Below, in pieces: positions 3,637 to 14,549 of a stretch of DNA of 20,000 nt. The position numbers and the translations under genes are program-made. Origin of the DNA: an uncultured virus (IMG/VR IMGVR_UViG_3300037044_000254) (Duplodnaviria; Heunggongvirae; Uroviricota; Caudoviricetes); the IMG/VR virus record IMGVR_UViG_3300037044_000254; one strand, given 5' to 3'. Under the pieces are notes generated by a model. It worked only from the letters and a program-made list of their open reading frames with translations. It made no database searches and was not told the DNA's origin. Position 1 is the first letter of the stretch; the number at the start of each line of letters is the position of its first letter.

Positions 3637-4047
3637 TTATCTCCTGCAGACCAGCCGGATGCGGCCGTCGCCTTGTTTTTCTTCAGTGACTCGATAGCCC
3701 TTCTTCTTGGCTTCGGCTTTGGCTTTCTCTACCCCGTAGGACTGCTTGAGCTTTCCCAGCCAGGAGTCGTTATAGCCGTTTTCCTTCCGGTCAAAGTCGG
3801 AGATATGAGCCCGGTATAAACCATCCGAGTACTGCTGGAAACCGATGTCGTTGGCTGCCATGCCCACATGCTGCCGCCGGATGATGATGTGGGCCTGCTG
3901 CTCTCGCTTATCTCCCTGGTAGCCGTAAAGAGCCTTGGCTTCCTGGTGGACCTCTAACTTATCCGGACCAAAACCCAAACGCCCCAACGCGGCCACCAGG
4001 GCCGCCTTGTCCCGAAACTCAACCTGCACTTCTGAGTAGTGGCTCAT
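3637..4047 (-). CDS. DUF1257 (Ycf35-like) protein
   Basis: 'MSHYSEVQVEFRDKAALVAAL..LGF', 'NDIGF', 'LKQSYG..A...GY.V.E' motifs. Confidence 0.85.
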   Translation of the reverse strand: MSHYSEVQVEFRDKAALVAALGRLGFGPDKLEVHQEAKALYGYQGDKREQQAHIIIRRQHVGMAANDIGFQQYSDGLYRAHISDFDRKENGYNDSWLGKLKQSYGVEKAKAEAKKKGYRVTEEKQGDGRIRLVCRR

Positions 4048-4259
4048 CAGTTTCCTCCCTCCGGGCCGACAATGCCCATGATCTTGATTTCAGATTGGAT
4101 GCCCACGTTAAGCAGTTCCTGGACACAGGCGTCGATATCACCCTCATGCAGGGCCTTTGCCCTGGCGGTAATTATGAGCCATGCCCATTTTGGAAGGCTT
4201 ATCGGGACCGGAACCTCGATGATTTGCCGAGTTTCTTCGCTGATCTCCACGGCCATCAT
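4047..4259 (-). CDS. Hypothetical protein (70 aa)
   Basis: ATGA coupling to the AAA stop at 4256-4259 and overlap with the DUF1257 start. Confidence 0.6.
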   Translation of the reverse strand: MMAVEISEETRQIIEVPVPISLPKWAWLIITARAKALHEGDIDACVQELLNVGIQSEIKIMGIVGPEGGN

Positions 4260-5674
4260 AACTGCACCCTCCTCTTCCCCTTGACCTCTTCCAGGACCGG
4301 CTTGCTGGCCGGGATGGTCCGGGCCCGTGCCCATTCCCTGAGACGGTCCATCTGGTCTTTCTGTGACCGGGAAATGGGGATGACGAACCGGGCTGCCGCC
4401 GAAAGATCCCCGCCGTTGTAAGCGGCCTCGATGGCCACCTGCCGGATTTCCGCACCACTGTAGCTGTCCAGGTCCGGCATTTTGGGGAAGTCGAGGTTTT
4501 TCTTACCCATAAACTGCCCCAGGTAAATCTCCAGGATGTCGTAACGCTGCTGAAGACCAGGATTCTCCACAAAGAAGATAGCGTCCCACCGGCCCATCCG
4601 GGTGTATTCCGGGGGGAGCTTCGAGTAATCGTTGCAGGTAGCGATCACGAACACCTCAGAGGTGTGGTCGTTCAGCCAGGTTAAGAAGGCGCCCCCCACC
4701 CTTTGGGTCGTGCCGCCATCCGTGGAAGACCCGCCCACCCCGGCCAGCCCCTTCTCGATCTCGTCAATAAAGAGGATGCAGGGCGCCATGGCGTCCACCA
4801 CCTTCAGGGCTTCCCGGATCTTCGCTTCCGATTCACCAACCAGGGAGCCAAAGATTTTACCCATGCTCAAGGAGAGGCAGGGCCAGCCCACCTGATTGCC
4901 CAGAGCCTTGGCAAAGTGGCTCTTACCAGTCCCCGGGATTCCCAGGAGCAGGATCCCCCGGAAAGGCAACCCGGGGCGCCGCTTCTCGAACCGGCCCAAC
5001 GTCCAGTCCTTGAGGTTCTCCAGGCCGCCCAGGGTTTCAAAGGTTTCCTTGAACTGGCTGAACTCCAGGGCCGCCGACTTCTTGACCATCTGGGCCTTTA
5101 GCTCGGTGATGGTTTTGGGGTCGAAGCATTTCTGCCGCACCAGGGCTAACGCCATGGCGTTCTCTGCTTCCTCCCAGGTGAGCCCCTGAGCCGCATCCAG
5201 GACCATGTCCTCATCCCCGGCCTTGACCCCGGTGCTATCCTCCAGGCCTGCCAGGATTCCCCTCAACTCTTCCCGGGTGGGCAGGGGAAAATCCAGAACC
5301 ACCACCTCCCGCTCCAGTTCCGCGGGCAACTCAGCGTCCGGGGCAACCATGACCAACGTGATCCCCTTGGCCTTGTAAACCGGCAGGTTGTTTTGAATTG
5401 CCTGGATAACCGGCGGCTCCTTAATAAAGAAATGGTAATTTCTCAGGAACCACACCGATTTTTCTTTGCCCCTTGCCGCCGCATTAGGAAGGTCAAAGGG
5501 GTCGCACTCTTGCCACTCCGCCCCGTTGCCCAATTCCCGATAGCCCCTCACGATGTCCCATTGATAAGGGGTCCTGCCGTTGATCTTCTTGACCATGGAG
5601 CCAATGAACCGCTCCGGCTCATGCGTCCGTACCATAAGGACCGGGTAACCGGCCTTCAGATAATCGGTGATCAT
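4256..5674 (-). CDS. AAA+ ATPase (Ycf46-like: degenerate N-terminal domain plus active C-terminal AAA)
   Basis: Walker A GIPGTGKS, Walker B ILFIDEIEK, SRH/Arg finger 'ATCN..LPPEYTRMGRWD'. Confidence 0.92.
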   Translation of the reverse strand: MITDYLKAGYPVLMVRTHEPERFIGSMVKKINGRTPYQWDIVRGYRELGNGAEWQECDPFDLPNAAARGKEKSVWFLRNYHFFIKEPPVIQAIQNNLPVYKAKGITLVMVAPDAELPAELEREVVVLDFPLPTREELRGILAGLEDSTGVKAGDEDMVLDAAQGLTWEEAENAMALALVRQKCFDPKTITELKAQMVKKSAALEFSQFKETFETLGGLENLKDWTLGRFEKRRPGLPFRGILLLGIPGTGKSHFAKALGNQVGWPCLSLSMGKIFGSLVGESEAKIREALKVVDAMAPCILFIDEIEKGLAGVGGSSTDGGTTQRVGGAFLTWLNDHTSEVFVIATCNDYSKLPPEYTRMGRWDAIFFVENPGLQQRYDILEIYLGQFMGKKNLDFPKMPDLDSYSGAEIRQVAIEAAYNGGDLSAAARFVIPISRSQKDQMDRLREWARARTIPASKPVLEEVKGKRRVQL

Positions 5675-5703: not shown

Positions 5704-6060
5704 TTAAAGGTTGTCAAACAGGCTCGGATCCCGCAGTTCCGGGACCGTCACTCCCAGGTGCTTCTCCAGCCATTCGGCCACCAGGCGCCGGTGACAGAAT
5801 TTGCCCGGAGCCTCCCAACAAATGAGGATGGAATTTTTCCCCAGATCCTCGTAAACCTTCCGGGGGTCCAGGTTGTCCAGGATCTTCTGATACTCTTCCC
5901 GGTAGGTGTCCTCGTCCATCTTTAGCATCTCGCGCCGAGGGGCCAGGGCCGGGTAGCTGCGGCCCCGGTACCACCGCGGGGCCCGGAGGGCGATAGAGAC
6001 GCTACTGCTCCCGAAGCCGTCTTGTTGGCTGCATATTCTTGAGAAGTTACTGGTTTGCAC
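5704..6060 (-). CDS. DUF488-family protein (copy 1)
   Basis: 'ILICWEAPGKFCHRRLVAEWL' motif; GTG start with AAGGAGG RBS. Confidence 0.8.
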   Translation of the reverse strand: MQTSNFSRICSQQDGFGSSSVSIALRAPRWYRGRSYPALAPRREMLKMDEDTYREEYQKILDNLDPRKVYEDLGKNSILICWEAPGKFCHRRLVAEWLEKHLGVTVPELRDPSLFDNL

Positions 6061-6339: not shown

Positions 6340-6960
6340 ATGAGTAAGGCACTCAAAGAGAGGCACGAATCCGCCAGACTCGCGCCCCGTCGTTCAGAGC
6401 CTCACTACAATTTTTGTTAAGGGTTATCAGCTTCACGCTTTGCTCGCCGGCCGCTTGAACATTGTCCGCCGTTCTCGTTCCCTTCCTTCCTGGAGTTTCC
6501 GTCGCTCCTCCACCTCCAGGCCGCTTGCGCTCAGGATTGATTCAGGTTTCCGCTGTCCCGCACATCTCCGGGTCCTCTCTGCGCTTGGTATAAGGAGACC
6601 AAAAACCAGGGTATCTTTTAGGAGGGTCCCTACCTCCAGGATTCGTCTCGGCCAATCCATAAGTCCGTGAGCTTCTTGGTTTCCTGCCAGAGTGCTCAGT
6701 CCTCAGCAGTTTTCCGGTCCTGCTAACCTACCCGCCTTTTCCAGTTTGACCCTTGAGCCGGGGAGGCCTCGCTCGCCCTCCGGGTATCCCAGTTTCGGGA
6801 ATCCATTGCGCCTTGAGCTGCGCCTCATTTGCAATTTCGCTTTTCCCGTAGGATTGCCAGAGTTGCTATCCTCTTTCTGATTGTAACCAGCGCTGCCTTC
6901 TGTTTTGTGGGGGGTTCTATTAGGCTCCCGGACTCCCCCCCGGGGAGCGCTGCTGGTTAC
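6340..6960 (-). ncRNA. Candidate long structured non-coding RNA or leader
   Basis: No convincing CDS; dense hairpins, including a 12-bp stem at 6360-6388 that closes fully only on the minus strand via G-U pairs. Confidence 0.35.
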
Positions 6961-7066
6961 GGCTTTTGCGCCTTTACTTTATCCTATAGTTGCGTCCTCC
7001 TTTATTACCATGATTTGTTATTGTTATTTAGTTTTATCCTATAATATTACGCACCTATGTAAAGAA

Positions 7067-7102
7067 GTTTATTCTCACAATCGCAGGTTTATTCTCACAA
7101 TC
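7067..7102. repeat. 16-bp direct repeat GTTTATTCTCACAATC x2 (20-bp period)
   Basis: Exact copies at 7067-7082 and 7087-7102 in AT-rich intergenic DNA. Confidence 0.85.
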
Positions 7103-7225
7103 CTAAGTAGTGTTTAGCATTGTAATTAACGTTACTTCAGATTAAGGACAAATCTCACCGCTCCCAACTGTTATTGGGTTTTATAAGGATATTATTTATG
7201 GGAATCAGTAACGCTGCATTAAGGT

Positions 7226-8152
7226 CTAAACAACATGTAGCGCCATATCGAACTCTTTATAAATCAACCCTTCCGAACTTGGCATCATGCACAGGTACTC
7301 CGAGAGCCATGTTTGTTTTGATACCTGCCGCTTTTTGGAAATTGCATCATCGATCCGATAGTACCCGTCGGCATGGCGAGCCCGGCCCTGGCATTCATCC
7401 CACAGGTCGCAAGTCTCGCAATCTCGGCCATCGCACCGCTCCAGCACGTCAAGGATGCACCACTTGTAAAGCTGGTAGCCCCGGGCCGGGGCCTCTTCCA
7501 CGACCGACTGCATGAGGCCATAGGTCTTGTGCATGGTGGAGTAGATATGCGTGCTGGCCCGGTGCCCCCGCTTACTCATGGGGATGGACAAGGCGGCCTC
7601 GTAAATCCGGGGGTCCATCTCATCAATCTCATCCAATTTAAGTTTCTGCGGGTGCGCCCCGCGAACGCTCTTAGATGAGGCCGTGAGAATCTGGATGTTC
7701 GACAGGTTGCCCAGGACCGTTCGTTGTGCCAGCATGTCGCCGCGCAGCAGGTATCGGAAATCCTCGGTCACCATGCCCCAGCCGTCCCCCTCGCCGGTCA
7801 AGTGTTCGTACATGCGCTTGCTCTGTTCCAGAGACCCGCCTAACACCTTGGTGGCACACCCGGTCTTAAACACGGTATCCAGCCAGGTAGCCAGGGCGCC
7901 CAGGAGGGTTTTGCCACCGCCGCGGTTGGCCCAGCAGACCGAGTCCTGGACCACCTCAAAGAAGCTGTCCACGATGTACTCGGCCGGCGGGGTATGTTCG
8001 GGGCAGACCTGGGCTCGGGGAACGCGTAACTTCCAGAAGGAGTCGATAAATTTCAGCAGTTCCTCGGCGCCATCGAATCCTTCGCACCGGTAATGTTCCA
8101 GGAGGCCGCGCTTCATGTCTCCCGGGTCAATGTCGGCCAATTGGAGGTTCAT
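7226..8152 (-). CDS. Terminase large subunit, ATPase domain only
   Basis: Walker A ANRGGGKT, 'VRG...LKLDEIDEM' Walker B, 'YST' motif III, 'W.SEYLC...EGLIYKEFD..HVV' lid/linker, then stop. Confidence 0.85.
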   Translation of the reverse strand: MNLQLADIDPGDMKRGLLEHYRCEGFDGAEELLKFIDSFWKLRVPRAQVCPEHTPPAEYIVDSFFEVVQDSVCWANRGGGKTLLGALATWLDTVFKTGCATKVLGGSLEQSKRMYEHLTGEGDGWGMVTEDFRYLLRGDMLAQRTVLGNLSNIQILTASSKSVRGAHPQKLKLDEIDEMDPRIYEAALSIPMSKRGHRASTHIYSTMHKTYGLMQSVVEEAPARGYQLYKWCILDVLERCDGRDCETCDLWDECQGRARHADGYYRIDDAISKKRQVSKQTWLSEYLCMMPSSEGLIYKEFDMALHVV

Positions 8153-8370
8153 AAGGCCCCGCCGCCATGCACCCAGTATGCCAAAGCTCGCAAATGAGAC
8201 AAAAAGGGGGTACGGTTACACGCGCCACCTATGGGTAAAATACGGGCGATTCGTGAGGCAAGGTAATTGGTGAGGTGGGTTCGTGTTCGTTGAAATACAG
8301 ACGTTAGGCGACCCCGGGAAGCGTTGATATGGTAAGGGTTTACCGATTTAGGGGCATTGTGGAGAATATT

Positions 8371-8441
8371 AGTGGGGAAAGTGGGTTCTATAGCCCTCAA
8401 AGTGGGGAATAGGGTTCCTATATAGGGGGCAAGTGGGGATA
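8371..8441. repeat. Imperfect ~30-bp tandem repeats (AGTGGGGA x3) with CTATAG / CCTATATAGG palindromes
   Basis: AGTGGGGA at 8371, 8401 and 8432; perfect palindrome at 8417-8426. Confidence 0.6.
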
Positions 8442-8495
8442 GCACGTTTTTATTAAAATTGTCGTCCATTTTTGTAAGTTTAATAAAATTCATGT

Positions 8496-8990
8496 CTAGT
8501 CTTTTTTTTCGCCATAATCATTGATCAATTTCACGAGGTCGAGAACAGCTTCTCTTATAGACTTCTCTTTATATGGTATGTCTATGATCTTAAGCTGGTC
8601 TGCGACCTTTTCGATGAGACCGGCTCCCTGCATGAATTTGATATACTTTTCCTTCAGGGCGATAATGTTCCTCATGCAGGCCACTTTCACAAAAGGGTTG
8701 GTGGCCGTTCGATAGGCTCTCCATTCCATCCGGAGCGCCTGCTCGTAACTCCTGATTTCACGCCCCAGGACTTCCGCCTGATCCACCGCTTTGGAGAGGG
8801 CCCGGTCGAAGGCTTTACCGTCCTCTTTGTCACGTCGCACCTGTCGTTCTGAAATCCCGTAAAATTCTGAAATTTCGGACACTTTCAAGCCGCTATCGAA
8901 GAGGTCCTGGATCTCCCGGATGCGCTGCTGCCGGCGCCTCGAAATGGGCGGAATTTCCTTCGGGGCGTTGGGGGTTTCGGACAGTGTCAT
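8496..8990 (-). CDS. Putative terminase small subunit (N-terminal HTH plus helical oligomerisation region)
   Basis: 'GLKVSEISEFYGISERQVRRD' HTH; lies between terminase-domain genes; ATGA-coupled to the upstream gene. Confidence 0.6.
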   Translation of the reverse strand: MTLSETPNAPKEIPPISRRRQQRIREIQDLFDSGLKVSEISEFYGISERQVRRDKEDGKAFDRALSKAVDQAEVLGREIRSYEQALRMEWRAYRTATNPFVKVACMRNIIALKEKYIKFMQGAGLIEKVADQLKIIDIPYKEKSIREAVLDLVKLINDYGEKKD

Positions 8991-9496
8991 CGTCCGCCTT
9001 GCCAGCCGGCATAGAAATATCGGAGACCATCCGGCCCGTGGTGCGCCCCTTTCCCGGGCTCATGCTTCTCGTACTGACTCATCTCCACCAGCATCTCCCG
9101 GGGACAGTTCCGGGAGAAGACCAGGCCACTCGATCCCTTAGTGCTCCTGGAATACTGAAGCCACCTCTTGACCGTTTCATGGCCCCAATGCACCGATTGG
9201 CGAGGACCCAGGATGTCCACGCCGAAGGCCAGGGAATAAGCCCGGAGCATATCCGGGGCCGATGGATCCCCCCAGCCTCCCGTGAGTTGGCCGTAACCCC
9301 GGGCCTTATGAATCTCCAGGGCTATCTTTGCGTTCTCGTCCGGGGTCCTGAGCACCTGGTAGTGGGCAAAGAGCACGATCACCCGCTCCATCTTCCGGTC
9401 CGGCTGGATCCAAAGAGTGACGTTTGGGTTGCGGAAGCCCTTGTCGATCCCCAGAAAGAGGTCGCAGTCGGGGGCGTAGTAGGGGTCAGGGGTCAT
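8987..9496 (-). CDS. Stand-alone terminase RNase H-like nuclease domain, acidic triad intact
   Basis: 'FLGIDKGFRNP', 'WGDPSAPD', 'HHGPDGLRYF'; likely ATG 9496 coupled to the upstream stop. Confidence 0.75.
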   Translation of the reverse strand: MTPDPYYAPDCDLFLGIDKGFRNPNVTLWIQPDRKMERVIVLFAHYQVLRTPDENAKIALEIHKARGYGQLTGGWGDPSAPDMLRAYSLAFGVDILGPRQSVHWGHETVKRWLQYSRSTKGSSGLVFSRNCPREMLVEMSQYEKHEPGKGAHHGPDGLRYFYAGWQGGR

Positions 9497-9801
9497 CGGA
9501 GCGCCCGCCCACAAGCACGACACCTATCCGGTGCTTGTTTTAGACCATGTTGTTTTAATAATTTTTTAATCTCGGCTAATGTTTTTTTGCCACAGTTTTT
9601 CATTTTCAATAATTCCTGGCCTGACATGTTGGCTAAATCGGAAAGCGTTAAGGTCCCTCCATCTTTATTTGGGGATAGGGTGGCCTTGTCATAGAGCATT
9701 CGTCTCAAACAGCCGCTGGCTCTAGTGGAAAGGGAGTTGATTTCTTTAAATACTCTAAAAAAATGGCCGTCGAGGGCTCTTATGGTAATTTCATCGCTCA
9801 T
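9493..9801 (-). CDS. Stand-alone RNA polymerase alpha C-terminal domain-like protein
   Basis: 'LSTRASGCL...TLSDLANMSGQELLKMKNCGKKTLAEIKKLL' matches the RpoA CTD pattern. Confidence 0.8.
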   Translation of the reverse strand: MSDEITIRALDGHFFRVFKEINSLSTRASGCLRRMLYDKATLSPNKDGGTLTLSDLANMSGQELLKMKNCGKKTLAEIKKLLKQHGLKQAPDRCRACGRALR

Positions 9802-10181
9802 TTCTTCATATCCCCCGGCTTGATCCCGAACTGGTTAAGGAGCTGTCCTGCCGCCTCTTTCTTCAGGACGCTGTCGGCCAAATGACTCAATGAACCGTCC
9901 GGCAAGATGACCCCGTTGCCCCTCAAAACTTTCCAGCCCTCCATGACTTGACAGATGTCCACCTGCGCCAGTTCCGCCCACCCCTGGAAATCTATCCTGG
10001 TTTTCTGCCAGAGGGCCTCCAGGTCCACCTCCTGGCCTGGGGGCGGAGAGTCCGGGAGCTGTCGCTCCACCTTGGGCCAGGCTGCGGCCATGGACATCAA
10101 GATGGGGTCCCGGACCATGAGGGCCACCCCCTGGTAATTCTCGGCGGCCCGGTGGATTAGGAGGGCATCATCCCGCCTCAT
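9798..10181 (-). CDS. Hypothetical protein (127 aa)
   Basis: ATGA-coupled on both sides. Confidence 0.75.
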   Translation of the reverse strand: MRRDDALLIHRAAENYQGVALMVRDPILMSMAAAWPKVERQLPDSPPPGQEVDLEALWQKTRIDFQGWAELAQVDICQVMEGWKVLRGNGVILPDGSLSHLADSVLKKEAAGQLLNQFGIKPGDMKK

Positions 10182-10951
10182 GCTGCCTGCTCCGGACCCT
10201 TTGCCTCTTCCACCGTCATCATTTGCTCCAGGCCGATCCTGGCCAGTTCCAGGAGTTTCAGGAAAGCCGCGGCGCTATTCTTGATCACGCACTTCTTCTT
10301 GATCTTGACCACCAGGTCGAAGAAGGCGTCATAGGTGTCCAGGTTTGCCAGGTAAACCGCGTCCGCGGAGAAGGCCACCGCCGTTTCCTTGAGGAGTTCG
10401 TCTAGGCTCTGGATCTCCTCAGGTAAGAACATGAAGTTGGCCAGCTTATATTGGAGGCGCTGCTCGGAAATGGCCGAAAATTGGATTCCTTCCAGGGCTT
10501 TGACGGTATCTGAATCCAGCCCGGCGTAGAGTTTGGCCTGAACGTTGCCAATGCTCTCCCATAACTCCTTCAGGATCACCAGGTCGTCCTGGCCGGCGAT
10601 GGCGTTGTGGGAGAGCTGGATCCCCAGCTTCTCGTCCGCCGTCTTCTCATCGGCTACCACCATAACCAGAAGCTGTTCTACCCCGGCCTGTCGGGCCGCC
10701 ATGGTGCGATGGTTTCCGGAGAGGACCAAGAGCTTGCCGCACTCCTCCCGGTAGCAGAGGGGCAGGGAGGAAAGGTTGCCATCCTTACGCACGTTCTCCA
10801 CCAGGGACTGAAATTGCTCGGCCTTCATATAGCGGGCGTTCTTGTCCAGGAGCTTCAGCTCTCCCGGGTCCACCAGCTCCAGCCGGTAGGGGAACAGGCC
10901 GGCCAGCTTCTCGTTAAGGAGCTTTAGGATTTCTGATATTTCTTCAGCCAT
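10178..10951 (-). CDS. ParB/Srx N-terminal domain protein
   Basis: 'KNARYM..EQFQSLVENVRKDG...VLSGNHRTMAA' ParB-like motif. Confidence 0.85.
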   Translation of the reverse strand: MAEEISEILKLLNEKLAGLFPYRLELVDPGELKLLDKNARYMKAEQFQSLVENVRKDGNLSSLPLCYREECGKLLVLSGNHRTMAARQAGVEQLLVMVVADEKTADEKLGIQLSHNAIAGQDDLVILKELWESIGNVQAKLYAGLDSDTVKALEGIQFSAISEQRLQYKLANFMFLPEEIQSLDELLKETAVAFSADAVYLANLDTYDAFFDLVVKIKKKCVIKNSAAAFLKLLELARIGLEQMMTVEEAKGPEQAA

Positions 10952-12222
10952 AACGGGATGACCTCCTCCAACCCTCTAATTCCCAGGTCGGTTTCATAGA
11001 CCAGCTTCCCGGGATCTCGCCGGGCCAGTTTAAAAAGCCCCCGGTATTTCATGGATACCGGCTTGTCGGTAAAAACCATCGTCCTGCAGGTGGGAAGCTC
11101 GTCAAGGAGATGCTCCTCCATCATCCGCCTGATCTCCTTGCTCTGAATCACCAGGAGGAGGAGTTTCGCCAGCCTCGAGTACCGGGTCGAATCTACGACG
11201 AAATCCGCCAAGAGATAGACATCGCCTCTCCCCTGCATCCGGGCAAAGATCAGGAAGCCGAAGACCTTCCCATCCACAGCCACCGCAAAGGGAGCTTCTC
11301 CATCGGCTGGGATCCCCACACCTTTGGAAAGGTAAACGTCCCGGAAATAATTGACGATGGCGTTGGTGGTGGGTGCTATGGTGAGCTTGGAGCCCGGGGT
11401 AATCTCGTCCTGGTCCGACAGACGGGCAAAGGGCACGAACTGGGACCGCCGCTGCTGTTTCAGGACCGCCAGCCGCAGGGCAGCCATGTTGGAATAGATG
11501 TAGACTGGCTTCATCCTGGCCTTGCGTACCACGGCCACCATGGGCAGGCCCGGGTACTGCCGGTCATCCAGATAAAGGTAGTCACGCTCCATCATCTTCA
11601 TAATGGTGCGTTTCTTCCTGTCCTCGTCGATCATCTCGTAGTTGGGCTCGTCCCATGCGAAGATCTCACCCAGGCGCTTGAACATCCGCTCATAGCCGCC
11701 GGCGTAGGTGGGCAGAAAGGCGATGACCACCCCGTCTTTCGGGATCTCGTCCAGTAGATCGAAAATATCCTTACTGGTGTAGCCTTCCAGCCGGACCCCC
11801 TGCTTCCGCTCCCGGAGCTTCTCGACCGTGGATTGGTGAAACTGGGAGAAGTTTTTGCAGTAGTGGGCCCAATGGCGGGCCTTGAAGATGTTATTCGCCT
11901 TCTCGTATTTCAGGGCCTCCAGGAGGACCATCACGGTGGCGGCTTTGCCTTCCCCGTCCTCCATGAAGGCTTCGAGCCATTGATAATCTTCTTCCCGGAC
12001 AGTGAGGTTAAAGGGCTGGTCGGCCAGATAGGCCCCCAGGGCGCCGGAGTAAAGAGAAACGTCGTTGCCCCAGATCCGGGCCTTGGGAGCGTAACGGGAA
12101 ATGAGTTGCTCCACCGTGAAGTTGCCGGAGCAGCCCACGTACACCTGCCGGCCGTCAAAGGCGGGGCCGTTATTCCCCAACCATTTTCGGGTTTCAGCGT
12201 TTATGGAACCGATGAAGGCCAT
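10924..12222 (-). CDS. Putative DNA-modification enzyme: divergent adenine MTase-like N-domain plus GNAT/Mom-like C-domain
   Basis: 'VYVGCSGNFT' (motif I-like), 'GNDVS', 'AFLPTY' (DPPY-like position); C-terminal 'AVAVDGKVFGFLIF...RLAKLLL'; paired with ParB. Confidence 0.55.
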   Translation of the reverse strand: MAFIGSINAETRKWLGNNGPAFDGRQVYVGCSGNFTVEQLISRYAPKARIWGNDVSLYSGALGAYLADQPFNLTVREEDYQWLEAFMEDGEGKAATVMVLLEALKYEKANNIFKARHWAHYCKNFSQFHQSTVEKLRERKQGVRLEGYTSKDIFDLLDEIPKDGVVIAFLPTYAGGYERMFKRLGEIFAWDEPNYEMIDEDRKKRTIMKMMERDYLYLDDRQYPGLPMVAVVRKARMKPVYIYSNMAALRLAVLKQQRRSQFVPFARLSDQDEITPGSKLTIAPTTNAIVNYFRDVYLSKGVGIPADGEAPFAVAVDGKVFGFLIFARMQGRGDVYLLADFVVDSTRYSRLAKLLLLVIQSKEIRRMMEEHLLDELPTCRTMVFTDKPVSMKYRGLFKLARRDPGKLVYETDLGIRGLEEVIPLWLKKYQKS

Positions 12223-12232
12223 CTATCCTCTC

Positions 12233-12261
12233 TTGGAAAAGACCTTAAAATGCTTTATAAT
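12233..12261 (+). promoter_or_regulatory. Sigma70-like promoter of the TA operon
   Basis: TTGGAA-N17-TATAAT. Confidence 0.6.
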
Positions 12262-12285
12262 TGACGGCACAGGAGGACAGTTCCC

Positions 12286-12480
12286 ATGGGTAATACCGAA
12301 ATCTCCCAAAAGGCCGTCCCTTCAAAAGGAAAGCCGCAGAATGCTCAGGCCGCCGCCGGTCTCCTGTTGGTCTCCAACCTTGGCTGGAGCGCCGAAGAGG
12401 CGAAGGAAACGCGGGCCCGCCTGGGCGCCTTGGAAGAAGACTGGGACACCCCGGGCATGGAGGATTATGACCACCTATAA
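12286..12480 (+). CDS. Putative antitoxin
   Basis: AGGAGG RBS, acidic C-terminus EEDWDTPGMEDYD, overlaps the toxin start. Confidence 0.7.
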   Translation: MGNTEISQKAVPSKGKPQNAQAAAGLLLVSNLGWSAEEAKETRARLGALEEDWDTPGMEDYDHL

Positions 12481-12814
12481 ACGGGGGGACGTGATCCTCG
12501 TCAAATTCCCCTACTCGGACCTGGTCAGATATAAAAAGAGGCCGGCCCTGGTGGTCCAGGACGAGACCGTCGAAACCGGGTTGAGCCAGAGGGTCGTGGT
12601 TCAAATAACCTCCAACCTGGACCGCACCGGAGATACCCGGGTGCCGGTCAAGAAAAATAGTCCCGACGGCCAGGCCATGGGGATTCTCTCGGATTCCGTC
12701 ATCGTTGCCGATCATCTGGCCACTGTCCTCCCCAGGGAAATCGACAAAGTGATTGGCCGCTGCACCTGTATGCCAGAGGTTGAAACAGCCTTGAGACGGG
12801 TGCTCGGCCTCTGA
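12467..12814 (+). CDS. mazF: PemK/MazF-family endoribonuclease toxin
   Basis: 'RGDVILVKFPYSD...KKRPALVVQ...VVVQITS'; GGAGG RBS before ATG 12467. Confidence 0.92.
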   Translation: MTTYKRGDVILVKFPYSDLVRYKKRPALVVQDETVETGLSQRVVVQITSNLDRTGDTRVPVKKNSPDGQAMGILSDSVIVADHLATVLPREIDKVIGRCTCMPEVETALRRVLGL

Positions 12815-12892
12815 TTCTTCCTTTTCCACCAATCCTGATCTGGAGCGGGTCGGTTGAATCGAACAACCAGCACCACCTGGTCGATGATGCCC

Positions 12893-13282
12893 TCACCACG
12901 AGTCCCCGCCTTCATGTAAACTCCGAAGCCACTCAGCTTGGCGCTTATGGCTGGGCATAAACTCCTCGATGAGCACGCCGGTGTGCTTCCGCATCCAGGC
13001 GGCCACTACCCGGCGGTGACAGAACTTTCCGGGGGCCTCCCAGCAAAGCATGATGAAGTTGTCGCCGCCCAGATCAGTGATCACCCGCATAGGGTCGAGC
13101 CTGTCCAGGACCTCAGCTTTATAAAGCCGGGTGAAGGTTGTGGGGTCCATGATCTTAATGAGAGGCCGCGGCGGGGCCAGAATAGTGCATCGGGTGCCCC
13201 GCCAGCCCCGGGGCACCCCCAGGGAGATGGCCACCGCCTGGGGGAGATGGCCGGCGATTTTGAAATTCGAGGTTAGGATCAT
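12893..13282 (-). CDS. DUF488-family protein (copy 2)
   Basis: 'MLCWEAPGKFCHRRVVAAW'; ATGA-coupled to the radical SAM gene. Confidence 0.8.
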   Translation of the reverse strand: MILTSNFKIAGHLPQAVAISLGVPRGWRGTRCTILAPPRPLIKIMDPTTFTRLYKAEVLDRLDPMRVITDLGGDNFIMLCWEAPGKFCHRRVVAAWMRKHTGVLIEEFMPSHKRQAEWLRSLHEGGDSW

Positions 13283-14022
13283 GCAGCAGCCTCCAGTAAA
13301 TCCTTCTTCAGATAGTAGGGTTTCCCCAGCCTGGAAAGTCTCTCCTCCATCTCCCCCTTAAATTTCCGCCAGTCAATCTCCTTGGCCAGGGGGTGATAGT
13401 TGAGCTTTCCAACCTTGTAGAGGTCAACAAAATCTTGGGTGGCTTCCAGGAGCCGATAGACCGCCTCCGGGTCGATGACCGGCTCGAAGGAAACCCAAGT
13501 CTTTAAGCCGATCTTTTTTGCCAGATAGAGCGAATCAATCCGATCTTGAGGCAAGGCGGCGCCCGGTTCCCAGACACGGCTGATGTTCGGGACATCATGG
13601 GTTAAGGTGACGCTCCAGGCGTTGAGGGGGTTCAGGGTTAAAAGATCTCGGTCCCGCTCCAGCCCCCAGGCTCCCCCCTTGGTTAAAATGGTGACGGTGA
13701 GATCATTGGCCATCAGGATTTCCAGCGCCCGACGGGTTACCCGGGCTTCCTTTTCCAGGGGCTGGTAAGTGTCGCTGGTGAAGGACAGCAGGATCTCGCT
13801 CTTGTCTCTCGCCATTGAACGGGCCTGTTCTTCCAGGTCCTCCAGGACTCCCGGTCGGGGCTTGATATATGATGGATCATGAAACGTCGCCCGATCCGTG
13901 AATGTGGCCGTGGGGGCGAAACAGTAAAGGCAGCCATGGGCGCAACCCCGATAAAGGTTCAGGGCCAGGGGCGCATACTCCCCGGCCTTGCCCCGGGGCT
14001 CATAAATCACCGATCTTTTCAT
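13279..14022 (-). CDS. Radical SAM protein (SPL-like family)
   Basis: 'LNLYRGCAHGCLYCFA' CxxxCxxC, 'SDTYQPLE', 'ILTK', 'SFEP'; GAGGTG RBS before ATG 14022. Confidence 0.9.
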   Translation of the reverse strand: MKRSVIYEPRGKAGEYAPLALNLYRGCAHGCLYCFAPTATFTDRATFHDPSYIKPRPGVLEDLEEQARSMARDKSEILLSFTSDTYQPLEKEARVTRRALEILMANDLTVTILTKGGAWGLERDRDLLTLNPLNAWSVTLTHDVPNISRVWEPGAALPQDRIDSLYLAKKIGLKTWVSFEPVIDPEAVYRLLEATQDFVDLYKVGKLNYHPLAKEIDWRKFKGEMEERLSRLGKPYYLKKDLLEAAA

Positions 14023-14549
14023 AACCACCTCACCCTTGGTGTAACTTCGGTCGCCAACCCCAGGATCAGGAAATGCAGGGCGCCGATCCCGTAATTGTCC
14101 ATGTCCAGGGGTTTGTCCCGGAATGGCCGGCGGGGGTCCCGCTCCGGCATCCGGTATTTCATAAATTCGGGAATCGTCTTCGGACACTCCCGGGAAATGG
14201 TGATCCCGCCCGGGATGCCTTGCTTGTAGTTACCCAACCGCTTCCCCAGGAGGTTGCGGGCCAGGCCCAGTTCCTCAGGCGCCGCCACCGACCATAATCG
14301 CTGGCGCCGCATCCGCTTGATAAACTCCGGCTCCTTGGGGTCACAGTAAAACTTTCTGATATTTAGCTCCTGGGCCCAGGCCTTGGCGATGGGCAGGAGG
14401 TCGTCGAAGTAAAAACTCTCCTCATACAGTTCCCGGAAGATGTGGAGATGATCCTTGGGAGCCGGGGTATATTCGGCGGCTAACATGACGGTAGGATTAT
14501 CCATGCCCCACTTGACCCCGACGTAAACCCTGGGTTTAGGTTCTTCCAC
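14019..14549 (-). CDS. Second stand-alone terminase nuclease-like domain, catalytic Asp residues substituted
   Basis: 'VYVGVKWGMDNPT', 'HIFRELY', 'FYCDPKEP', 'ISRECPKTIPEFMKY', 'DMDNYGIGALHF'. Confidence 0.75.
   Translation of the reverse strand: MEEPKPRVYVGVKWGMDNPTVMLAAEYTPAPKDHLHIFRELYEESFYFDDLLPIAKAWAQELNIRKFYCDPKEPEFIKRMRRQRLWSVAAPEELGLARNLLGKRLGNYKQGIPGGITISRECPKTIPEFMKYRMPERDPRRPFRDKPLDMDNYGIGALHFLILGLATEVTPRVRWL

Follow-up and report, generated by a model that had tools for sequence, protein, structure and literature searches.

A predicted two-gene large terminase with nuclease-first gene order in a clade of prophages from Thermodesulfobacteriota-type hosts

The Terminase Locus

We analyzed the terminase locus of an uncultured member of the Caudoviricetes (IMG/VR record IMGVR_UViG_3300037044_000254) in a stretch of 20,000 nucleotides (nt), referred to here as the window. 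In an initial annotation, positions 7226..9496 had been described as a split and permuted large terminase (TerL), in which the ATPase and nuclease domains are encoded by different genes, with that for the nuclease upstream of that for the ATPase and beyond that of the small terminase (TerS). The coordinates and peptides quoted there were all exact. As judged from comparative sequence analysis and structure prediction, this is a real, inherited and selected two-gene large terminase with reversed gene order, which defines a large prophage clade of Thermodesulfobacteriota-type hosts. The nuclease gene, a gene for a helix-turn-helix (HTH) protein and the ATPase gene are all on the minus strand, as are the genes that surround them. 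The features of the locus are listed here, sizes being given in nt or amino acids (aa) and ORF denoting an open reading frame:

8987..9496, minus strand: stand-alone terminase nuclease gene, 169 aa, RNase H-like fold, with D18/D77/D156
8496..8990, minus strand: TerS-like HTH protein, 164 aa, putative small terminase
8153..8495, minus strand: spacer, 343 nt, non-coding, carrying a 114-codon ORF (8493..8149)
7226..8152, minus strand: stand-alone terminase ATPase gene, 308 aa
6357..7225, no strand assigned: conserved 869-nt region without a convincing ORF, 3' of the ATPase gene

The start codon of the nuclease gene (ATG 9496) overlaps the stop codon of the preceding gene (ATGA), and the nuclease stop codon overlaps the start of the TerS-like gene likewise. 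From these ATGA overlaps, the nuclease gene is predicted to be translationally coupled to both of its neighbors.

The ATPase Half

The ATPase ORF (8152..7226, minus strand) encodes 308 residues and has the C-terminal end ...EGLIYKEFDMALHVV, directly followed by the stop codon. It contains a Walker A motif, ANRGGGKT (K81/T82), and a Walker B motif, LKLDE (D174/E175), and all four of these residues are invariant in 53 sequences. When the ORF was aligned with P0105, a relative in which the large terminase is a fused, 530-residue protein, the match extended over residues 74–348 at 49% identity, with a shared end, ...HV[VI]. An AlphaFold2 model built on a sequence alignment had a predicted local distance difference test score (pLDDT) of 91.6. 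The best match to this model in a Foldseek search of the PDB was the ATPase domain of T4 gp17 (2o0j; E = 2e-8, TMq 0.61), with further matches to the P74-26, D6E, PhiV-1, HK97 and Sf6 TerL proteins, and the top ten were all terminase ATPases. A sequence profile that combined the split and fused forms also retrieved the D6E large terminase from the PDB (E = 2e-17); single-sequence PDB searches, with either the ATPase ORF or the nuclease ORF, returned only noise. The ratio of nonsynonymous to synonymous substitution rates (dN/dS) was 0.07–0.16 for the ATPase gene, calculated from pairs with dS < 1.

A cluster of cysteine and histidine residues (C50, H53, C232, C240, C245, C248, C254 and C288) is invariant or nearly so, and is common to split and fused relatives. 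Its conservation suggests a metal-binding insertion of this terminase lineage.

The Nuclease Half

The nuclease ORF runs from the ATG at 9496 (MTPDPYYAPDCDLFLGIDKGFRNP...) to 8987 and encodes 169 residues. An alternative GTG start codon exists upstream, at 9523; the homologues begin at the position of ATG 9496. The initial annotation had credited this ORF with all three acidic motifs of a TerL nuclease, which is borne out by an alignment of 31 sequences: no substitution occurs at D18 or D156, and the conservation of D77 is at least 90%. The ORF aligned to residues 360–514 of P0105. Its AlphaFold2 model, likewise built on a sequence alignment, had a pLDDT of 91.7, and the top Foldseek match was the D6E TerL (5oe8; E = 1.4e-6, TMq 0.67), with the SPP1 G2P nuclease (2wc9), G20c, P22 and herpes simplex virus (HSV) pUL15C among the further top matches.

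In the fused relatives, the C-terminal part matched the Pfam family PF17289 (Terminase_6C) in all nine proteins tested (E ≤ 0.0064); the curated cut-off was reached or exceeded in six of these. When the nuclease ORF was used as query in an exhaustive phmmer search, 49 representatives were obtained, which were either stand-alone proteins of 160–179 aa or the C-terminal parts of proteins of 370–504 aa. The dN/dS of the nuclease gene was 0.06–0.19 (the window's pairs with dS < 1). By its modeled fold and conserved acidic residues, the product is an RNase H-like terminase nuclease that looks active, and it is predicted to cut DNA. The domain identities of both halves rest on the colinear mapping onto fused relatives described below, the PDB profile search, the AlphaFold models and the Foldseek matches, rather than on a direct Pfam or PHROG match.

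Two Halves of One Large Terminase

The fused protein P0154 matches the ATPase ORF through residues 12–304 and the nuclease ORF through residues 311–472, in a single chain, and P0155, P0156 and P0158 are organized in the same way, with an N-terminal part that matches the ATPase ORF and a C-terminal part that matches the nuclease ORF. As originally proposed, the ATPase ORF ends where TerL proteins enter the nuclease domain, since its alignments with P0105 and P0154 stop at the same boundary. By these alignments, the break between the halves sits exactly at the linker that joins the two domains in one-chain enzymes. The further claim that the two ORFs, joined end to start, read as one canonical TerL also holds: they are colinear on P0105, P0154, P0155, P0156 and P0158, and the predicted folds match.

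The ATPase ORF was searched against 5.8 billion proteins, and the matches listed included 120 clusters. Among these listed matches, the 106 clusters with at least 55% identity all had lengths of 362 aa or less, and 13 of the 14 clusters with identities of 49% or less were 446–538 aa long. We then considered the genomic context. Close ATPase homologues were found at 21 loci in viral contigs, and a nuclease gene was present upstream on the same strand in 18 of these; two others had no upstream sequence, while L021 lacked the nuclease despite 4 kb of upstream sequence. A scan of the viral contigs with the fused P0105 found no relatives. In genome bins, where the best 80 loci were taken with one genome per species, all 28 loci with an ATPase identity of at least 59% were split, and all 52 loci at 38–46% identity were fused, in a single frame of 471–566 codons. 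The bins of the split loci were labeled Deltaproteobacteria, Thermodesulfobacteriota, Syntrophales, Syntrophobacterales, Desulfobaccales, Desulfobacca or Desulfobacteraceae in 26 cases and simply Proteobacteria in the other two. The bins of the fused loci were labeled as Planctomycetota lineages in 49 cases, with three unclassified.

Of all 49 close loci, 34 had the nuclease gene upstream on the same strand, no locus had it downstream, and seven could not be judged (loci that lack the nuclease are considered below). The initial annotation had called for the same split order to be sought in other genomes. It was found in 33 of the 33 loci in which both the nuclease and the HTH gene were detected, always as nuclease, TerS-like gene and ATPase, and the gap between the nuclease and HTH genes was no more than 164 nt in 28 of these. 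In a maximum-likelihood tree, the 38 split forms all fell on one side of a single branch, in agreement with 90% of bootstrap trees. Most likely, the split has a single origin: a fused enzyme like that of the Planctomycetota relatives would have been divided in the ancestor of what is now a large phage clade. The case that would have spoken against an inherited split, a unique and decaying copy among fused relatives, was not what we found: every close relative is split, with dN/dS near 0.1, and the ATPase and nuclease genes are both under purifying selection (dN/dS ≈ 0.06–0.19).

One relative, G002, is a 53.9-kb genome with terminal repeats that was rated 100% complete. It contains portal, protease, major capsid, tape-measure and tail genes, and its separate ATPase and nuclease genes were the only matches to terminase profiles, with no other TerL. 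The portal ORF of G002 (L032 7425-10655) is 1076 aa long and also matches head-morphogenesis families. Near its C-terminus there is a match to an HNH endonuclease family (phrog_559, E = 2.4e-5).

Since the source is a metagenome assembly, and since a deletion in one related copy, L009, removes the N-terminus of the nuclease, we considered whether the split could have arisen as an artefact during assembly or could reflect two decaying pseudogenes of a defective prophage. An independent contig from a DNA run covers positions 7287–9900 with zero differences, the identical layout is seen in 34 independent contigs, the ORFs are intact with low dN/dS in all compared copies, and the complete relative genome has the same split, which makes such an origin exceedingly improbable. 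The initial annotation had reasoned that a frameshift or sequencing error could not explain the split, and the preservation of the layout in dozens of independent contigs, together with the DNA-run contig, excludes these as well as misassembly.

In the L009 copy itself (4003-4504), the deletion fuses the first 29 codons of a ParB-like gene to approximately codon 29 of the nuclease gene, with loss of the catalytic D18. The L009 copy is probably either defective or chimeric as a result of assembly.

The nuclease, TerS-like and ATPase genes are all covered by contigs from three RNA libraries. Stretches with little or no contig cover, at approximately 6944–7315, 8308–8431 and 9548–9795, were left out of the interpretation. 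The only junctions seen in the contigs were strain variants, namely 8143->8518, in which the spacer is missing, and 9492->9798, in which a gene with an RpoA-CTD-like domain is missing. No junction between the 3' end of the ATPase gene and the 5' end of the nuclease gene was present in the three RNA-library runs or the one DNA run. These data bear on the possibility that the halves are rejoined, by trans-splicing, a split intein, or DNA excision and circularization, so that the enzyme is still made as one chain. Group I introns or homing endonuclease genes are known to divide terL into colinear pieces (PMC4246154, PMC12880540), and the region 3' of the ATPase gene is conserved and non-coding. 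However, Rfam detected neither an intron nor any other RNA family in the window, and the downstream region folds no better than shuffled sequences. The overlap of the nuclease start with the stop codon of the previous gene leaves no room there for an intron half, and the ATPase ORF stops at the domain boundary, with no intein-sized extension. With the 7226/9496 junction also missing from all four runs, rejoining of the halves is very improbable, and the two genes are better understood as encoding two separate chains.

The two halves do not always share the same history. Between the window and L002, dS was 0.07 for the ATPase gene and 0.57 for the nuclease gene, while L009 and the window have 91% identity in the nuclease and 75% in the ATPase. 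This discordant divergence is of the kind usual for mosaic phage genomes, the breakpoint here falling between the halves. It lends modest support to the earlier suggestion that a two-component motor permits nuclease exchange, although such exchange is not established by it.

The HTH Protein between the Halves

The 164-residue HTH protein matched the Pfam family HTH_23 (E = 2.5e-5) and, weakly, phrog_7067, "terminase small subunit" (E = 9.5e-4). Its homologues gave mixed results: phrog_7067 was matched by 5 of 11, phrog_836 ("late transcriptional activator") by 3 of 11, and Sigma70_r4_2 by one. A search of the ESM Atlas yielded only HTH or extracytoplasmic function (ECF)-sigma-like neighbors. 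The protein has an N-terminal HTH and a helical C-terminal part in a total of ≈160 aa, and its gene has a dN/dS of 0.07–0.24 (pairs with dS < 1).

We consider it probable that the HTH protein is the small terminase. The TerS label that it received in the initial annotation is kept here as a putative one, based on the HTH domain, size, architecture and position. The other candidate function is that of a late-gene transcription regulator, which would affect only this part of the interpretation. The family matches are found only in the HTH (HTH_23, Sigma70_r4_2, phrog_836 in 3 of 11 homologues and the ECF-sigma-like Atlas neighbors), and a conserved promoter cassette with repeated boxes is located immediately downstream of the HTH gene, both of which would suit a regulator; a protein of ≈160 aa with an HTH and a helical C-terminus, at a constant site between terminase genes, better suits a small terminase, as do the phrog_7067 matches in 5 of 11 homologues. 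A regulator is thus possible, but the less likely of the two.

The Spacer and a Sigma-54-Type Promoter

The spacer between the TerS-like and ATPase genes contains the 114-codon ORF 8493..8149. The variable columns are evenly spread over the three codon positions (34/41/43), and dN/dS is 0.39–0.96, by which a coding function was rejected as unlikely; the ORF is probably not a gene. In an nhmmer search, 20 further loci, including rather distant ones, were found to carry the spacer element between their TerS-like and ATPase genes (this number excludes the window itself and L118, which is L051 fetched again). It is missing from close relatives, and among close strains it may be present or absent.

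Sigma-54 promoters have the consensus TGGCAC-N5-TTGCW, with a GG-N10-GC core. The spacer contains TGGCATACTGGGTGC at 8183..8169 on the minus strand, just 5' of the ATPase start, and boxes of the CCCCACTT type are repeated upstream of it. This sequence fits a predicted sigma-54-type promoter, in that it matches the GG-N10-GC core. The GG and the downstream positions of the element are invariant in 19 aligned copies. The pattern had one match in the window compared to 0.15 expected, and at least one match occurred in 28 of 200 shuffled sequences. No Sigma54_activat domain was found among the window ORFs that were scanned. RNAalifold gave essentially no consensus structure for the spacer as a structured RNA. 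From the conserved sigma-54-type match in the spacer, the ATPase gene therefore appears to have its own regulated promoter in the window's subclade. In relatives without the spacer, the ATPase gene is translationally coupled to the HTH gene.

The Region Downstream of the ATPase Gene

The ATPase gene was originally described as being followed by AT-rich non-coding DNA. This is correct: the GC content is 0.44 at 7001–7500, compared to 0.56–0.61 on both sides, and there are no minus-strand ORFs of 40 aa or more in 7225-6835. The AT-rich part contains two exact 16-nt direct repeats (7067-7082 and 7087-7102) and a sigma-70-like site (7063..7036, minus strand). It is followed by a purine-rich part that has 95–96% nucleotide identity in L003–L005; even in L009, the purine-rich stretch is close to invariant. 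An exact-pattern scan of the viral contigs for the 869-nt region retrieved only four near-identical copies.

Neither tblastn nor hidden Markov model (HMM) searches detected a remnant of a nuclease domain in the 869-nt region. The possibility that the region is a structured RNA was rejected, as it folds no better than shuffled sequences on either strand (z = +1.4 and +1.3) and has no Rfam match. We regard this conserved DNA as a putative regulatory or leader region. An 18-nt inverted repeat between the nuclease coding region and the ATPase start was also dismissed, as a chance occurrence: only the window and L004 retain it (16/17), and it is weak in L002 and absent elsewhere.

Neighboring Genes and Prophage Context

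The other features around the locus are the following:

14019..14549, minus strand: nuclease-like paralog, probably inactive, 176 aa (profile match)
12222..10924, minus strand: Dam-like and GNAT-like DNA-modification gene (PF22555/PF22559)
10951..10178, minus strand: ParB-like gene
9798..10181, minus strand: p127, a conserved gene without assigned function that travels with the terminase genes (position in relatives)
9493..9801, minus strand: accessory 102-aa gene with an RNA polymerase alpha C-terminal-like domain (Pfam RNA_pol_A_CTD, E = 4.7e-10)
Beyond the 869-nt region, reading along the minus strand: p70, a DUF488 gene and an AAA ATPase gene

In the window's subclade, p127 is 5' of the nuclease gene, and in L016, L017, L019 and L020 it is immediately 5' of the ATPase gene. 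The RNA_pol_A_CTD gene, which sits between p127 and the nuclease gene, is missing from the near-identical L004, and a contig from the RNA-library run X17 that jumps 9492->9798 also lacks it. Genes that look like DNA-modification genes flank the terminase genes on both sides (10178-14187 and 5704-6060, minus strand) and include the Dam-like/GNAT-like and ParB-like genes, a radical SAM gene and two DUF488-N3a genes; the AAA ATPase gene and a DUF1257 gene are found downstream.

At its right end, the window carries genes for a tyrosine integrase and a CI-like repressor, together with CII-like, O-like, DnaC-like and RuvC-like genes. The integrase, CI-like repressor and replication-type genes identify the window as part of a temperate prophage. 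The window stops short of any portal gene. No tRNA or tmRNA gene was found in it, and an Rfam search of the whole window gave no match at E ≤ 1.

Loci without a Nuclease and the Inactive Paralog

Several observations weigh against the interpretation of the locus as a two-gene large terminase. The ATPase ORF has no Pfam match at E ≤ 0.01 and no PHROG match at E ≤ 0.001, the nuclease ORF alone matches neither Pfam nor PHROGs, and the family matches of the TerS-like protein are all weak and restricted to the HTH. (Even in the fused relatives, the GpA_ATPase and Terminase_6N matches are all sub-threshold; this terminase lineage is divergent, and the missing match to a curated family therefore does not count against the ATPase fold.) The nuclease is far more diverged from the fused relatives than the ATPase, with identities of 27–31% compared to 44–49%. 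The support for the single branch in the tree is modest (ultrafast bootstrap 90; Shimodaira–Hasegawa-like approximate likelihood ratio test, SH-aLRT, 47), and the contig cover from the RNA libraries was taken as evidence for the assembly, not as proof of transcription. Furthermore, the nuclease is missing in 8 of the 49 close loci, although at least 3.9 kb of upstream sequence is present and the ATPase gene is intact, and no nuclease match was found in the whole bin G007. Based on these eight loci and G007, the ATPase can persist without a linked nuclease.

For this reason, some weight must be left for the alternative that the free nuclease has left packaging, for a role in, e.g., junction resolution or DNA processing, and that the ATPase uses another cutter or none at all. 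Intact ATPase genes under purifying selection in the eight nuclease-less loci, and in one whole bin, are in line with this, as are the faster divergence of the nuclease and the HNH-like stretch in the long portal ORF of G002. The nuclease nevertheless keeps its three catalytic acids at a dN/dS of ≈0.1, and in 33 of 33 loci its gene precedes the TerS-like and ATPase genes within one operon-like block. A RuvC-like resolvase is already encoded elsewhere in the window. Moreover, those nuclease-less loci that were inspected closely are small islands without capsid genes, and thus not self-sufficient phages. We therefore consider it unlikely that the nuclease has left packaging, and retain it as the second half of the terminase.

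The eight nuclease-less loci are dispersed in the tree among nuclease-bearing relatives. In L051/L118 (L118 11715-19462), the ATPase gene is part of an island of ≈7.9 kb, flanked by host glycogen-metabolism genes on one side and transporter genes on the other. The gene order is integrase, 275-aa, 101-aa, 757-aa and 96-aa proteins, p127-like, TerS-like, ATPase; there are no capsid or tail genes. No nuclease match was found anywhere in the 3.4-Mb bin, and no att-like direct repeats were found around the L051 island. L052 is the same island in a different bin. L055 has only the p127/TerS/ATPase block in common with the L051 island, with a different primase gene in front, and also abuts host genes. 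Its bin, G008, contains the nuclease-bearing L044 and L047 in addition to L055, although binning may mix genomes. The island ATPase genes keep the Walker A and B motifs, with a dN/dS of ≈0.10.

Satellites similar to the phage-inducible chromosomal islands (PICIs) are small integrated elements that have integrase, replication and packaging-redirection genes but lack capsid and tail genes and are flanked by host genes, and L051/L118 fits this description. As a hypothesis based on their gene content, the ATPase-only islands look like satellites that carry half a terminase, and they may be mobilized by a helper phage, of which the co-occurrence of L055 with L044 and L047 in G008 gives a hint.

The paralog of the nuclease (14549..14019, minus strand; 176 aa) matched the nuclease profile with an hhalign probability of 98.4% and phrog_6672, "terminase large subunit", with E = 3.2e-5. 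The first and third catalytic aspartates are replaced (by K/N and G/S/A, respectively) in five of five copies, and this second terminase-nuclease-like protein is probably inactive. Its gene adjoins the radical SAM gene and is conserved across the split clade, in loci with enough upstream sequence; it was not found within the 5–6-kb flanks of 62 fused loci examined.

More speculatively, the split may have made the motor half a tradable module. The ≈8-kb islands, which occur in the same bacterial lineages, would then be satellites that supply recognition and motor functions while borrowing the nuclease, portal and capsid of a helper, and the dead paralog might stand in structurally for the missing C-terminal domain of the motor. 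We regard this combined scenario as doubtful.

Discussion

The window very likely represents part of a temperate, long-tailed prophage of a Thermodesulfobacteriota-type ("deltaproteobacterial") host, with close relatives in bacteria of the sulfate-reducer type, in which the large terminase is inherited as two separately translated proteins with a permuted gene order. We infer that the two chains assemble into one motor. The ATPase would assemble on the portal as the translocating ring, while the nuclease, as a free protein recruited non-covalently together with the TerS-like protein, would make the initiation cut and the headful or cos cuts. The permuted order could be the result of a tandem terS–terL duplication followed by reciprocal loss, or of a relocation of the nuclease segment, both of which are speculative.

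In mechanistic models of DNA packaging, translocation and cutting are coupled through the covalent linker that joins the motor to the nuclease, and the split clade contrasts with this arrangement. The clade offers a natural system in which to study how a nuclease is recruited and then silenced during translocation, which of the halves touches the portal and which touches TerS, and whether TerL-sensing defenses still detect the enzyme. Avs3 senses both TerL domains, and evasion of such defenses was suggested in the initial annotation as a possible benefit of the split. The recognition of TerL by Avs1–3 has been described, and a structure of Avs3 with terminase exists (PDB 8dgc; PMC11564622). 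In part of the clade, the halves appear to have separate promoters. The divide between split and fused forms falls cleanly between host phyla, and both the dead paralog and the ATPase-only islands point to additional uses for each half. A practical consequence is that such phages look terminase-less in annotation, since both halves are missed by Pfam and PHROGs.

Comparison with Known Systems

The one-chain TerL proteins with known structures, namely those of D6E (5oe8/5oea), T4 (gp17, 2o0j/3cpe), P74-26 (4znk), SPP1 (2wc9), HK97 (6z6d) and Sf6 (4iei), have the same folds and motifs as the two halves described here. The enzyme encoded in the window differs from these in that it has no covalent linker and its gene order is permuted. 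The closest fused relatives in sequence, with 38–49% ATPase identity, are mostly from bins labeled Planctomycetota. A different comparison is provided by phi29 gp16, a packaging ATPase without an active nuclease; this phage packages protein-primed, unit-length DNA that needs no cutting, and it uses a packaging RNA (pRNA). Phi29 shows that a translocating ATPase can work without an attached active nuclease, whereas the window keeps an active-looking nuclease gene next to the TerS-like gene.

The fused nuclease domain of TerL has been called universal in tailed phages (PMC7824862). The statement in the initial annotation that TerL is normally one polypeptide is correct to that extent, but two-gene terminases have also appeared in print (PMC11920828, PMC12820723, PMC5513430). 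In the cluster AY phages of Arthrobacter, which include BillyTP and BlueShadow, the large terminase is reported to be encoded in "two separate and consecutive genes", which in BlueShadow are gene 2 for the ATPase and gene 3 for the nuclease (PMC11920828, PMC12820723). As described in these reports, cluster AY resembles the window's clade in having the ATPase and nuclease on separate genes as a clade-wide trait. In cluster AY, however, the genes are consecutive, with the ATPase first, whereas in the window's clade the nuclease comes first and is separated from the ATPase by the TerS-like gene and often by a promoter cassette or cargo genes. The hosts are also different, Actinobacteria for cluster AY and Thermodesulfobacteriota for the clade described here. 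A comparison of the window ATPase with 50,697 phage records did not retrieve any Arthrobacter phage, and the one weak match was to a Microcystis phage. In the cluster AT phages of Arthrobacter (KellEzio and Kitkat), genes 4 and 10 are both described as TerL-related (PMC5513430). These are likewise two TerL-related genes separated by other genes, and the description in PMC5513430 does not state which gene holds which domain. Cluster AT has no detectable sequence relation to the window ATPase.

Finally, terL is broken by group I introns or homing-endonuclease genes in Lelliottia phage phD2B and the Jug phages (PMC4246154, PMC12880540). The pieces described there are colinear, and their splicing into a single mRNA is presumed, whereas in the window they are permuted, without any intron signal, and the ends of the ORFs overlap their neighbors. 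No description of a nuclease-first terminase layout was found in the literature searched, which did not cover supplements and GenBank records; the further cases retrieved were split by introns, contained inteins or had two colinear genes. A large terminase encoded by two genes is known from a few phages but has been little studied, and the clade to which the window belongs differs from these in its reversed, nuclease-first order.

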